DNA of 64,000 nt from Escherichia phage vB_EcoM-UFV09, in sequence record MZ291552.2, one strand, 5' to 3'. The translations under genes and the position numbers were made by a program. This document shows positions 3,697 through 63,634 of this stretch, in pieces (the first letter of the stretch is position 1; every line of letters starts with the position of its first letter). The notes beneath the pieces are model-generated. The model had not been told where the DNA came from, ran no database searches, and saw only the letters and a program-made list of their open reading frames with translations.

Positions 3697-4047
3697 TTAG
3701 TATTCTTTTAAAGCATCAATTTGTTCACGGCGTTTACGCCATAAATCAATTGCTTCATAAGCAGATTCAGCATTTCGAATTAGCCGACATTTATATAAAG
3801 ACTTGTGATTTTGGTATTGCGTAGATAATGGAATTTTATCTAAAAGGTCTTTGCGTTCAAAGTATTCGTAACCATCTAAACCAAATGAACGATTTTTGAG
3901 AAATTGCCAATGACCATATTCGTTTTCGACATAAACATAATCTGCATGCTGATAAAGCAAATTAATTACACGTTCAGAAATAACAGTATCATTATGATTA
4001 AAATAGAATGTTAAATCATGAACTACTAAATAAACATTACCTTTCAT
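3697..4047 (-). CDS. Hypothetical protein next to the tRNA array
   Basis: 116-aa ORF immediately downstream (minus-strand sense) of tRNA-Arg. Confidence 0.55.
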   Translation of the reverse strand: MKGNVYLVVHDLTFYFNHNDTVISERVINLLYQHADYVYVENEYGHWQFLKNRSFGLDGYEYFERKDLLDKIPLSTQYQNHKSLYKCRLIRNAESAYEAIDLWRKRREQIDALKEY

Positions 4048-4065
4048 ATTTTCCTCACTTATAAT

Positions 4066-4141
4066 TGGTCGAGGCAGTAGGGATCGAACCTACGACCCAG
4101 GACTTAGAAGGTCCTTGCTCTTCCTTCTGAGCTATGCCCCG
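4066..4141 (-). tRNA. tRNA-Arg (anticodon TCT)
   Basis: Hand-folded cloverleaf: acceptor CGGGGCA with TGCCTCG, anticodon loop CTTCTAA, T-loop TTCGATC, encoded CCA. Confidence 0.8.
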
Positions 4142-4145
4142 TAAT

Positions 4146-4221
4146 TGGGGTGACCGATGGGAGTCGAACCCATGACTACGAGAATCACAATCTCGAGTTC
4201 TACCAACTGAACTACGGCCAC
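4146..4221 (-). tRNA. tRNA-His (anticodon GTG)
   Basis: Hand-folded: acceptor GTGGCCG with CGGTCAC, anticodon loop TTGTGAT, T-loop TTCGACT, CCA. Confidence 0.75.
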
Positions 4222-4335
4222 ATTAATACCTACTCCAACAATCATGATGTCTTCACACGAAATTAAGAGAAGAGTGATCAGTTCAACCCCTATAATCGCG
4301 TCAAGTAGATATTAATGTGACAGTTGTCACAAATT

Positions 4336-4410
4336 TGGCGGACGTGATAGGATTCGAACCTATAACCAATCGCTTAACAGGCGATCGCTCTGCCATTGAG
4401 CTACACATCC
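4336..4410 (-). tRNA. tRNA-Asn (anticodon GTT)
   Basis: Hand-folded: acceptor GGATGTG with CACGTCC, anticodon stem ATCGC/GCGAT with loop CTGTTAA, T-loop TTCGAAT, CCA. Confidence 0.8.
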
Positions 4411-4414
4411 AAAT

Positions 4415-4501
4415 TGGTGGGGAGTGATGGAGTCGAACCACCCGAGTCGCAATGACAATGAATTTACAGTCCACACCGCTACCTCTACGGGATAACTCCC
4501 C
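4415..4501 (-). tRNA. tRNA-Tyr (anticodon GTA), type II with long variable arm
   Basis: 87 nt; acceptor GGGGAGT with ACTCCCC; anticodon loop CTGTAAA; the anticodon stem relies on G-U pairs, so the isotype is less certain. Confidence 0.6.
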
Positions 4502-4507
4502 TTAATT

Positions 4508-4582
4508 TGGTGGCCCTGGGTGGAATTGAACCACCATCTGGCGATTATGAGTCGCTTGCTTGAACCTTCCAGCTACAGGGCC
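4508..4582 (-). tRNA. tRNA with CAT anticodon (Met, or Ile2 if lysidine-modified as in T4)
   Basis: Acceptor GGCCCTG with CAGGGCC, anticodon loop CTCATAA, T-loop TTCAATT; sits between Thr and the next tRNA where T4 has tRNA-Ile. Confidence 0.7.
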
Positions 4583-4583
4583 T

Positions 4584-4659
4584 TGGTGCTGATTGACGGA
4601 ATCGAACCGCCGACATCCTCATTACAAGTGAGGTGCTCTACCTACTGAGCTAAATCAGC
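4584..4659 (-). tRNA. tRNA-Thr (anticodon TGT)
   Basis: Acceptor GCTGATT with AATCAGC, anticodon stem CCTCA/TGAGG with loop CTTGTAA. Confidence 0.8.
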
Positions 4660-4664
4660 AAAGC

Positions 4665-4754
4665 TGGCGGAGGCGATAGGATTTGAACCTATGAATCGCC
4701 GGAGCGACTGCCGGTTTTCAAGACCGGTGCATTAAACCACTCTGCCACGCCTCC
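4665..4754 (-). tRNA. tRNA-Ser (anticodon TGA), type II
   Basis: 90 nt; acceptor GGAGGCG with CGCCTCC, anticodon stem CCGGT/ACCGG with loop CTTGAAA, long variable arm. Confidence 0.8.
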
Positions 4755-4756
4755 AG

Positions 4757-4830
4757 TCTCCATACAAGGATTTGAACCTTGGACCTCCTGATCCCAAATC
4801 AGGCGCTCTACCAAACTGAGCTACACGGAG
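4757..4830 (-). tRNA. tRNA-Pro (anticodon TGG)
   Basis: Acceptor CTCCGTG with TATGGAG (two G-U pairs), anticodon loop TTTGGGA; CCA not encoded. Confidence 0.75.
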
Positions 4831-4840
4831 TAAATTAAAT

Positions 4841-4914
<74 letters not shown>

Positions 4915-4919
4915 AAATT

Positions 4920-5006
4920 TGGTGCGAGAAGTGGGACTCGAACCCACAAGGAAATCATTCCGCAGCATTTTAAGTGCTGTGCCTTTACCAATTTGACCAT
5001 TCTCGC
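4920..5006 (-). tRNA. tRNA-Leu (anticodon TAA), type II
   Basis: 87 nt; acceptor GCGAGAA with TTCTCGC, anticodon stem CAGCA/TGCTG with loop CTTAAAA. Confidence 0.8.
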
Positions 5007-5007
5007 G

Positions 5008-5080
5008 CTGGGAATAAAGGATTCGAACCTTTGCATCTAGCAGTCAAAGTGCTATGCCTTACCAACTTGGCTAATTCCCA
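5008..5080 (-). tRNA. tRNA-Gln (anticodon TTG)
   Basis: Acceptor TGGGAAT with ATTCCCA, anticodon stem TAGCA/TGCTA with loop CTTTGAC; 1-nt gap to tRNA-Leu, as in the T4 Gln-Leu dimeric precursor. Confidence 0.75.
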
Positions 5081-5166: not shown

Positions 5167-5691
5167 TTAAAGCAAATTAAACATTTTAACAGTCGGCAAA
5201 ACAATTTCTTTTTCTATATAAGAGTATTTAACACTCTCAACTACACGCAAAAAATCATAATCATAATACTCAGAAGCACTGCCTAAAATATTAATAAGTC
5301 CTTCAAGCACTTTATTACCATTCACAAAGAATAAGTCAAATACACGTTCTTCGTCTTCTTCGGATTTATTACCAAGGTCAACTTCTATGTCAAAGACCTT
5401 TTTAATGAATTCTGGATAAAGTTGTTCTGAGAACAGTCCTTCAACCAAGTATTCATAAATAAAAAGCGATTGCTCGCTGAACAAGCCATTACCACAATAA
5501 CGTTCAGCTTTAGTACTAGAATGTCTGCTTTTAAACTTCTTTAAAAGATATTGGAATTGTAAGATTTCATGCTCTTCTACGCCAAACAGTGTTTTAGTTT
5601 TATAGTTGTCACCATCATTTTCCCAGGTAGTGACATCAATTACGTAACCCTGTGGAATTGTAGTACCTAAACAAATATTCATTTTCACCAC
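5167..5691 (-). CDS. Hypothetical protein (variable tRNA-proximal block)
   Basis: 174-aa ORF, acidic; no recognisable motif. Confidence 0.55.
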   Translation of the reverse strand: MVKMNICLGTTIPQGYVIDVTTWENDGDNYKTKTLFGVEEHEILQFQYLLKKFKSRHSSTKAERYCGNGLFSEQSLFIYEYLVEGLFSEQLYPEFIKKVFDIEVDLGNKSEEDEERVFDLFFVNGNKVLEGLINILGSASEYYDYDFLRVVESVKYSYIEKEIVLPTVKMFNLL

Positions 5692-5975
5692 GCTGCATTA
5701 ATATACGTTTTCTGAATGCATTCAAGACCTAAAGGATTCTTGAAAATATCATATTCAAGAGGACCTTTTTCTGTTTCAATAAAGAAATCAAAATTTACTG
5801 TATTAAATTTACGGTCTTCCTTCACTAATTTAACTTGAGAAGATGAACGGTCAACATAAACCTTTTCAACTTCAAAACATGTTAAAACGCCATAATCATC
5901 AATCAAGGCTTTAGCCGCGTCTTGATCATATTTATATCCATTTTCAATGGATGATACTTTCGCATAAAGAATCAT
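5685..5975 (-). CDS. Hypothetical protein
   Basis: 96-aa ORF tightly packed with its neighbours. Confidence 0.55.
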   Translation of the reverse strand: MILYAKVSSIENGYKYDQDAAKALIDDYGVLTCFEVEKVYVDRSSSQVKLVKEDRKFNTVNFDFFIETEKGPLEYDIFKNPLGLECIQKTYINAAW

Positions 5976-5977
5976 TA

Positions 5978-6382
5978 TTAACCTTTATCAACAATAGTAT
6001 GTGTATGGGCATTTACGATTTGCCACCAGTCAAAACTATCGCCAAATCGTTTTGATTTATTGTCTTCAATAATTTGGCGTAATTCATCTTCTGTTTCAGC
6101 ATACGCAATCAAATCATCATATCCACCGCAAGGATAGTAATTATCGCCTGCGAACAAAAGAAAATTTACTTTAGATGGGTCTACATAATAATGCTCTTTA
6201 GGATATTTAGTTCCTTTCCAATCAGTTACTTCAACATAACGATAAGAAAATCCATTTTTACTTTCAACCCAACTCCACGCTTCAAAAGGAGTATTAAAAA
6301 CTCTATCAGGTATTAAATTACCTTCAAAATGAGAAGGATTTGCATAATCCCCAGCATAAACATAATATTCGTTAATATTCAT
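5978..6382 (-). CDS. Hypothetical protein
   Basis: 134-aa ORF rich in Tyr/Trp; no recognisable motif. Confidence 0.55.
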   Translation of the reverse strand: MNINEYYVYAGDYANPSHFEGNLIPDRVFNTPFEAWSWVESKNGFSYRYVEVTDWKGTKYPKEHYYVDPSKVNFLLFAGDNYYPCGGYDDLIAYAETEDELRQIIEDNKSKRFGDSFDWWQIVNAHTHTIVDKG

Positions 6383-6568
6383 TTATTCACCTTTAGAAAT
6401 TTTATCCATAACAATAGCGATTAAACCAATTAAAAATGCTACTACAAGTGAAAAAACATTTTCTGCTGTAGTCAATAATCCGCATATAAATCCAACAAAC
6501 ATTGAAAAACTAAAAGCGGAAGCAGAAATTGCAATAGCAACATTTCGAATTAATTCACAACGTTTCAT
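6383..6568 (-). CDS. Small membrane protein
   Basis: 61-aa ORF, almost entirely hydrophobic (two predicted transmembrane segments). Confidence 0.55.
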   Translation of the reverse strand: MKRCELIRNVAIAISASAFSFSMFVGFICGLLTTAENVFSLVVAFLIGLIAIVMDKISKGE

Positions 6569-6596
6569 TTTATTCTCCTCGGTAGTTGATAGGGTA

Positions 6597-6626
6597 ATAG
6601 TATCACAACTAAAACCCTATGTAAAC
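6597..6626 (-). promoter_or_regulatory. T4 early-type promoter
   Basis: Minus strand: GTTTACA -35, 17-bp spacer, TACTAT -10. Confidence 0.5.
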
Positions 6627-6644
6627 AACTTTGTGAAATATTTA

Positions 6645-6929
6645 TTACAAAAGATTTTTAGCAATAATTTTAAGCTGAGCTACTGAAATATGCTTGGCTT
6701 TAAACAAAGCAGTTTCTTCAGCAGGGGAGATAACGATTGTAGCACCATCTTTCTTAGCGGACCATCCATCACCCAGGTAAACAGTACCTTTGACTTCTTC
6801 GCCATCAACCAGGCTAATCATCGGTTTACCTTCACGTCCTTTGTTTGCTTTAATAACTTCAGAAGTAAGGGTCGCTTCAGTCAAAGTAGAAGCGTTAGTG
6901 GTTGAAGTGAATTCTTGATAAGTTTTCAT
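6645..6929 (-). CDS. ipI: Internal protein I precursor (head-packaged, injected anti-restriction protein)
   Basis: 94 aa with N-terminal targeting sequence MKTYQEF and LTE cleavage-type sites; sits next to 57B, the T4 ipI position. Confidence 0.85.
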   Translation of the reverse strand: MKTYQEFTSTTNASTLTEATLTSEVIKANKGREGKPMISLVDGEEVKGTVYLGDGWSAKKDGATIVISPAEETALFKAKHISVAQLKIIAKNLL

Positions 6930-6959
6930 TTTATTTTCCTAATTAATTTTGATGAGGTA

Positions 6960-6989
6960 ATAGTATCACTACCTCATCAGCATGTAAAC
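6960..6989 (-). promoter_or_regulatory. T4 early-type promoter for ipI
   Basis: Minus strand: GTTTACA -35, 17-bp spacer, TACTAT -10; the -10 lies in the loop of the 6951-6978 inverted repeat. Confidence 0.5.
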
Positions 6990-7001
6990 AACTTTGTGAA
7001 A

Positions 7002-7698
<697 letters not shown>

Positions 7699-63524: not shown

Positions 63525-63634
63525 TTTATTCTCCTTTGTTTGTGTAAGATAATACTATCACAAAGGAACCATACTGTAAACAACTTTATGCAATCGTTGG
63601 AAAATAAAAAAGGACTCCCGAAGGAGTCCTCAAC

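Follow-up and report, generated by a model that had tools for sequence, protein, structure and literature searches.

The closest described counterpart of the locus analysed here is the trna.4, trna.3 and trna.2 region of phage T4 (T4p135, T4p134 and T4p133; UniProt P13322, P13323 and P13324), where the gene order runs from the gp1 deoxynucleoside monophosphate kinase gene through 57A, 57B and ipI to the block itself and then the tRNA genes. For T4 trna.2 and trna.3, both the RNA and the protein have been assigned to the early class, and for trna.4 the RNA alone (PMC9697503 supplement). In a recent preprint, T4 trna.2, trna.3 and trna.4 tolerate transposons at 23/25, 39/40 and 16/17 TA sites, respectively, and can be dispensed with on laboratory hosts; the Bas37 orthologues 0257-0259 are likewise non-essential, with log2 fold changes near zero in one comparison (bioRxiv 10.1101/2025.11.20.689424). 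The neighbouring genes ipI and 57B (encoding Acb1) are proven counter-defence genes (see PMC9117128). In this study, we have examined four small open reading frames (ORFs) at the corresponding place in Escherichia phage vB_EcoM-UFV09, using a 64,000-nucleotide (nt) stretch of record MZ291552.2 (the window), in which they share the order, strand and place of the T4 genes.

It is near certain, from sequence comparison, that the four ORFs are orthologues of T4 trna.4, trna.3 and trna.2 and of the phage RB32 gene RB32ORF135c, the last encoding a protein of 171 amino acids (aa) that belongs to the family phrog_2290. As for their functional class, the reading we favour, with a probability of roughly one half, is that they encode small non-enzymatic proteins that would bind and modulate a component of the host or of its defences early in infection. 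This reading draws on several lines of evidence taken together: (i) the early timing of expression; (ii) the dispensability of the genes; (iii) the small, acidic and non-enzymatic character of the products; (iv) the neighbours ipI and acb1; (v) the shuffling of trna.3 alleles; and (vi) a pulldown with the defence protein DRT1. In the best-studied group of phages most genes are uncharacterised, and the four examined here are among them; an assignment of function would fill a gap directly beside two counter-defence genes.

Gene identities and coding status

The four products match phrog_1692, phrog_1411, phrog_2023 and phrog_2290 at E values from 1e-35 to 1e-68. Trna.4 falls in phrog_1692 (E 6e-35 over positions 1-61 of 61), Trna.3 in phrog_1411 (E 2.7e-50 over 2-127 of 129) and Trna.2 in phrog_2023 (E 1.3e-47 over 1-94 of 95), with amino acid identities of 100%, 85% and 90%, respectively, to the T4 proteins, and synteny supports the assignment of Trna.4. 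The fourth product matches phrog_2290 at E 2e-68 and is 99% identical to RB32ORF135c, which is annotated as 'similar to RB69ORF151c, 44RRORF127c'. In precomputed Pfam assignments, all database homologues of Trna.3 carry PF26894 and homologues of Trna.2 carry PF27001. Escherichia phages vB_EcoM-UFV05 (a Tequatrovirus), UFV06, UFV10 and UFV11 are 100% identical at the DNA level over the 1.56-kb region, many other Tequatrovirus genomes are 88 to 97% identical to it, and 831 phage records match it at the DNA level.

A sequence-only reading of this stretch had reported four head-to-tail ORFs of unknown function between ipI and the tRNA genes. The ORFs are indeed present on the minus strand, flanked by ipI (Pfam IPI_T4) and an array of 11 tRNA genes; three of them are, however, long-annotated T4 genes, and what has been re-identified is a set of annotated hypothetical genes. 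Of the sizes reported, 61, 134 and 96 aa stand, while the 174 aa given for the phrog_2290 gene presupposes a GTG start. Its start is most likely the ATG at 5682, since this ATG is the one annotated in the GenBank records of identical and related phages and alignments of the family begin at the corresponding Met. With the ATG, the overlapping stops and starts that had been described disappear: the genes abut with gaps of 0 to 2 nt and no overlap (TAA-ATG between trna.4 and trna.3, then 2 nt and 2 nt), and only the GTG at 5691 would overlap the preceding trna.2 stop. The smallest product, Trna.4, is as hydrophobic as had been claimed (grand average of hydropathy [GRAVY] 1.22), with two hydrophobic segments, and is predicted to be a helical-hairpin membrane protein with two transmembrane helices; the soluble three are acidic, with isoelectric points (pI) of 4.6 to 4.8.

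Pairwise Nei-Gojobori comparisons with orthologues gave ratios of non-synonymous to synonymous substitution rates (dN/dS) of 0 to 0.46 for all four genes (0.11 to 0.46 for trna.2 and 0.07 to 0.31 for the 171-aa gene), and within Tequatrovirus trna.4 has no non-synonymous changes against 7 to 14% synonymous differences. The four ORFs are genuine genes under purifying selection. An AT-rich genome, short ORFs, the lack of a known function and a position on the same strand as, and directly upstream of, the tRNA array could all be accommodated by chance ORFs or by a leader RNA serving expression of the tRNA operon. This explanation is nevertheless contradicted by the many synonymous changes that accompany the low dN/dS values, by conservation of the proteins to 27 to 40% identity in distant phages, by the detection of T4 Trna.2 and Trna.3 as proteins, by a Shine-Dalgarno-like sequence before each of the four ATGs (GAGGAG for trna.4) and by the absence of any Rfam family inside the block. 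Because of the selection and proteomics evidence it is effectively refuted, and we accord it a negligible probability.

The promoter cassette and the transcription unit

The early-type promoter that had been proposed upstream of the block is borne out by a promoter scan: the sequence at 6597-6626, GTTTACA-N-GTGATACTAT, fits TTTACA-17-TACTAT with an upstream TG and conforms to the T4-type early promoter motif. With two or fewer mismatches allowed, the window contains four copies of GTTTAC-N14-GTGATACTAT, where chance would give 0.05. The promoter lies within a 54-nt direct repeat (6586-6639 and 6949-7002; 81% identity) that brackets ipI, with TTTACA-17-TACTAT at both copies. A hairpin with the arms ATAGGGT and ACCCTAT encloses the -10 region of the 6597-6626 promoter (-16.9 kcal/mol, z -3.9); the other copy carries a hairpin as well (z -5.8), and the arm sequences of the two differ yet remain complementary. 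Promoter, stem-loop and repetition around ipI are the features of the promoter plus stem-loop (PeSL) cassettes, and both copies fit the published T4/PST consensus TTTACW-N17-TAYWAT (PMC4122927).

The cassette at 6586-6639 would drive trna.4, trna.3, trna.2 and the phrog_2290 gene in that order. No terminator-like site was found on the minus strand between 5167 and 5080, and the two overlapping terminator-like hairpins with T-runs at 5465-5486 (minus strand), inside the 171-aa gene, do not exceed in number the regional chance expectation. The block and the tRNA array are probably co-transcribed, and we infer that the four genes form the leading, protein-coding portion of one early transcription unit of this T4-like (Tequatrovirus) phage, with transcription probably continuing into the tRNA genes. 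The order of the latter is Gln, Leu, Gly, Pro, Ser, Thr, a Met-type CAT tRNA (annotated as tRNA-Ile in T4 and RB32), Tyr, Asn, His and Arg, and the array is without the segB homing endonuclease gene; arrays of this T2L-type arrangement are converted by T4 SegB in mixed infections (PMC2330249). A separate observation concerns a 114-nt tRNA-free gap between the tRNA-His and tRNA-Asn genes (4222-4335), which has no Rfam match and is spanned by a 24-nt inverted repeat (4211-4234 and 4304-4327; 83% complementary). The coordinates of the block and its surroundings are collected in Table 1.

Table 1. Features of the block and its neighbourhood in the window
Feature	Position	Strand	Remarks
trna.4 orthologue	6383-6568	-	61 aa
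trna.3 orthologue	5978-6382	-	134 aa
trna.3, N-terminal domain (residues 1-70)	6173-6382	-	divergent, fast-swapping
trna.3, C-terminal domain (residues 71-134 and stop)	5978-6172	-	motif FAGDNYYPxGG ... DWWQIV
trna.2 orthologue	5685-5975	-	96 aa, acidic, pI 4.8
phrog_2290 gene	5167-5682	-	171 aa from ATG, acidic, pI 4.6; 5167-5691 (174 aa) from GTG
WENDGDNY loop codons (W20-E-N-D-G-D-N-Y27)	5602-5625	-	phrog_2290 signature, E-x-D-x-D
Promoter plus stem-loop cassette (PeSL type)	6586-6639	-	early promoter 6597-6626 and hairpin
T4-type early promoter motif copies	2644-2673, 6597-6626, 6960-6989, 63552-63581	- (all)	motif scan
ipI (internal protein I, GmrSD restriction enzyme inhibitor)	6645-6929	-	Pfam IPI_T4, E 1.3e-51; between two PeSL repeats
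57B (anti-CBASS nuclease Acb1)	7002-7457	-	Pfam Acb1, E 1.1e-59; upstream of block
tRNA array, 11 genes	4066-5080	-	ARAGORN and Rfam; downstream of block

Conserved and plastic parts of the block

The interval had been regarded as a hot spot for variable accessory genes, a description that does not hold for the block itself: it is conserved rather than hypervariable, since a tblastn search of 50,697 phage records found trna.4 in 790, trna.3 in 763 and trna.2 in 803 of them; the 171-aa family was present in 583. In a sliding comparison of near-identical phages, two divergent islands, the ip cassette between the PeSL copies and trna.3, stood out from DNA of 96 to 100% identity. Plasticity resides in the ip cassette that the promoter/stem-loop repeats enclose, in the N-terminal half of trna.3 and in whether a phage carries trna.2 and the 171-aa gene at all, each of which can be missing in related T4-like phages. 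The divergence of the trna.3 island (49 to 79% DNA identity), the shuffling of its N-terminal domain and the presence-absence of the last two genes are signatures of an arms race.

Between near-identical phages, the 5' half of trna.3 is 49 to 58% and the 3' half 72 to 79% identical, while the flanks are 96 to 100% identical. The first 70 residues of the protein come in at least four types, 21 to 50% identical to one another, which are combined with C-terminal halves 70 to 100% identical, and the invariant columns of the alignment are concentrated in the C-terminal domain. Homologues of this domain alone (57 to 124 aa) occur in dozens of unrelated viral contigs, and in the eight that were scanned the match to phrog_1411 is limited to its positions 61-129. 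Aligned with each other by hhalign, the two domains of Trna.3 are in register (probability 74%, E 2.7e-5); BLASTP between the halves was not significant, and neither was a hidden Markov model built from the stand-alone domains when compared with the N-terminal half (at most 4 bits). There is moderate support from these profiles for reading Trna.3 as a small domain duplicated in tandem, the first copy of which is swapped rapidly. A Salmonella phage STML-198-like genome (locus 4007-4219) has trna.3 reduced to the 70-aa C-terminal domain, a case which shows that the domain can function without its N-terminal copy. A swap-prone module joined to a constant one is the pattern expected of a specificity determinant.

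Most of the T4-like loci examined have trna.3 within 0 to 8 nt downstream of trna.4 (two loci have a gap of about 190 nt), and this adjacency also holds in loci that lack trna.2 and the 171-aa gene. The pairing raises the possibility of a module at the inner membrane, with Trna.4 as the anchor and Trna.3 as its soluble partner, acting for example in superinfection exclusion, in protection from membrane-acting abortive-infection effectors or in the control of lysis timing. Such a role would agree with the 61-aa length and two hydrophobic segments of Trna.4 and with the TAA-ATG junction, which suggests translational coupling of the two genes. T4 Imm and Sp are small early membrane proteins with roles of this kind. 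No homology to Imm, Sp or characterised membrane proteins was detected, Trna.4 is undetected as a protein in T4 proteomics (PMC9697503 supplement), and no experimental phenotype speaks for the module. We therefore regard it as rather improbable, and it is in any case a sub-case of the binding of host or defence components that we favour and not an exclusive alternative to it.

For trna.2, two published observations are pertinent. In a pulldown that compared wild-type with reverse transcriptase (RT)-dead DRT1, Inh and Trna.2 were the sole T4 proteins significantly enriched, a result that the authors did not follow up (PMC13275509), and in a CRISPRi-ART screen T4 trna.2 was scored 'Semi-Fit' (bioRxiv 10.1101/2023.09.18.558157 supplement). 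Trna.2 is an unexplored lead as a partner of the DRT1 defence system. Homologues of 38 to 41% identity are encoded by Salmonella phage PVP-SE1 (NC_016071) and Klebsiella phage Seu621 (MT939253); as neither phage is T4-like, judging from its name and size, the family appears to be wider than the T4 relatives. A 116-aa ORF at 3697-4047 (minus strand; phrog_3355) corresponds to the 'T2L trna.2' of the SegB paper (MKGNVYLVVHD is encoded by primer #24 of that paper); the ORF has no relation to the T4 trna.2 family, and the clash of names could mislead annotation.

The family of the fourth gene is very large. When 1.84 billion representative proteins were searched exhaustively with a profile, 1006 clusters (at 50% identity) reached E <= 1e-3 and 482 reached E <= 1e-10; among the 150 best clusters every protein is of 118 to 200 aa, with no fused domains. 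All 132 diverse members that were aligned fall in phrog_2290, a family without an assigned function or, in the copies used, a Pfam entry, and in all of them E21, D23 and D25 are invariant, while G12, W20, N22, G34, F50, G64, N65, R146 and V147 are nearly so. The three motifs of the family signature (GY-x-[ILV]-x-[VI]-T-[ST]-W-E-N-D-G-D-N-Y, a central G-N and a C-terminal R-V-x-E-S) are present in the 171-aa protein as G12, Y13, W20-Y27, G64, N65, R146 and V147. Of two scans for the motif that covered 185,579 genomes of bacteria and archaea, one gave no confirmed relative and the other a single contig, and the family looks almost confined to phages. This contig, JBOFGC010000083.1, comes from a Bacilli metagenome-assembled genome (MAG) and has at 6935-6958 the sole exact coding match to W-E-N-D-G-D-N-Y in these genomes; with ten tRNA genes in the 5.5 kb upstream of the match, it is probably a phage contig binned into the MAG.

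The company kept by phrog_2290 differs with distance. It occurs in Aeromonas, Stenotrophomonas and Vibrio phages, in a Synechococcus phage and in jumbo phages; its neighbours in distant phages include genes for DNA ligase, DNA polymerase, topoisomerase II subunits, ThyX, dUTPase and NAD salvage, with no tRNA genes within 4 kb outside the T4-like phages, whereas in enterobacterial T4-like phages it stands directly upstream of the tRNA array. T4 itself keeps, just after the trna.2 stop, about 22 nt (4607-4631 of the T4 locus) with homology to the 3'-terminal part of the 171-aa gene (5167-5190 of the window), together with a spacer to tRNA-Gln nearly identical to the one found here; from these remnants, T4 most likely lost the gene by deletion.

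These observations allow for a phage-intrinsic role, in which the 171-aa protein, and possibly others of the block, would act in the nucleic acid or tRNA metabolism of the phage and have no host defence target; as a variant, the protein could be a small metal-dependent enzyme or regulator working through its E-x-D-x-D loop. In its favour are (i) the spread of at least 1006 clusters over phages of many hosts; (ii) the invariance of E21, D23 and D25 and the near-invariance of N65 and R146; (iii) the replication, ThyX, dUTPase and NAD-salvage neighbours in distant phages; (iv) the position directly before the tRNA genes in enterobacterial T4-like phages; and (v) the virtual absence of the family from cellular genomes. 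On the other hand, T4 grows normally after the loss and many Tequatroviruses are without the gene, the protein resembles no enzyme family or solved structure, the linkage to tRNA genes ends outside the T4-like phages, and genomic context is a weak guide, as early regions house most phage accessory genes. We hold this explanation to be possible, if somewhat unlikely, and it is the main rival to a host- or defence-directed role, above all for phrog_2290; both are readings that we infer.

Functional readings and described counterparts

The sequence-only reading had recognised no motif in the four products, and profile and structure tools likewise yielded no function. Sequence-profile searches with all four proteins against Pfam, NCBIfam, PADLOC and PDB sequences gave nothing significant, with the best match among the PADLOC-DB defence proteins at E 0.03 and 12 bits. 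Profiles from deep and diverse alignments also found nothing in PDB or Pfam, and members of phrog_2290 have no consistent Pfam match. The AlphaFold2 model of the 171-aa protein, built from a shallow alignment, has a predicted local distance difference test (pLDDT) score of 63 and a predicted template modelling (pTM) score of 0.54; it places the WENDGDNY loop in a beta-hairpin, between strands 12-20 and 28-35, and also has several helices and a closing strand. The corresponding model of Trna.2, likewise from a shallow alignment, reached a pLDDT of 57 and a pTM of 0.41. A Foldseek search of BFVD retrieved nothing beyond uncharacterised members of the families, and a fold assignment from the two models is not justified.

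Two known classes were considered for the products themselves. The packaged internal proteins of the IPI, IPII and IPIII type are defined by an N-terminal capsid-targeting sequence that ends in an L-x-E site for the prohead protease; the N-termini of the four products (MKRCELIRN, MNINEYYVY, MILYAKVSS and MNICLGTTI) lack an MKTYQEF...-type sequence, and for this reason the identity was rejected; the ORF at 6645-6929 alone has such a sequence and a match to IPI_T4. Nor did any of the four match the Acb1 / 2H phosphoesterase family (PF23474, H-x-T/S motifs) in Pfam.

If the proteins do bind host or defence components, the mechanism might be as follows. Each would act in the first minutes of infection: Trna.4 at the inner membrane, always paired with Trna.3; Trna.3 through a conserved C-terminal module and an exchangeable N-terminal one; Trna.2 as a candidate partner of the DRT1 reverse transcriptase defence system; and the 171-aa protein through its invariant acidic hairpin (E21, D23 and D25). 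An anti-defence or host-takeover role, for which the block genes had been put forward as candidates, is plausible but unproven. A bolder version holds that at least one of the proteins represents a new class of counter-defence factor, with Trna.2 binding the reverse transcriptase/nitrilase filament of DRT1 and inhibiting or triggering it, or the E-x-D-x-D hairpin of phrog_2290 neutralising a widely conserved bacterial target; this we consider unlikely.

Several findings weigh against the reading we favour: (i) HIDEN-SEQ, in the available part of its report, names no T4 or Bas37 orthologue as a conditional hit, defence-system and clinical hosts included (bioRxiv 10.1101/2025.11.20.689424); (ii) the Trna.4 protein is 100% conserved across Tequatrovirus, which is unlike an arms race; (iii) phrog_2290 is found in phages of very different hosts, usually beside replication or nucleotide-metabolism genes, and its invariant E/D/D could serve in catalysis or in metal binding, so that for this family a phage-intrinsic function fits better than a host-specific inhibitor; and (iv) the models (pLDDT 63 and 57) are too poor to support or exclude any fold.

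To conclude, the locus can be set beside several described systems. A weak structural match of the 171-aa protein to p56 of phi29, a DNA mimic that inhibits uracil-DNA glycosylase, comes from a low-confidence model (pLDDT 63) and is a lead only, given that the two have no sequence similarity and the protein here is three times larger. The T4 trna.4-trna.2 locus has the same upstream type of promoter, and differs in being without the 171-aa gene and in having a T4-type tRNA array where a T2-type array is found here; many Tequatroviruses also carry a trna.3 allele unlike that of this phage. RB32ORF135c likewise has trna.2 on one side and tRNA-Gln on the other, with no difference of substance. 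With the PeSL cassettes of T4-type phages (Arbiol et al. 2010; Comeau et al. 2014) the locus shares an early promoter with an embedded hairpin flanking a variable ipI, although here one of the copies doubles as the promoter for a conserved four-gene block, and no further copy lies on the downstream side of that block. The four ORFs have neither sequence nor detectable structural similarity to ipI (anti-GmrSD) and 57B/Acb1 (anti-CBASS), being devoid of the capsid targeting of the former and the 2H-phosphoesterase motifs of the latter, but they share with both the neighbourhood, the strand, the small size and the dispensability.

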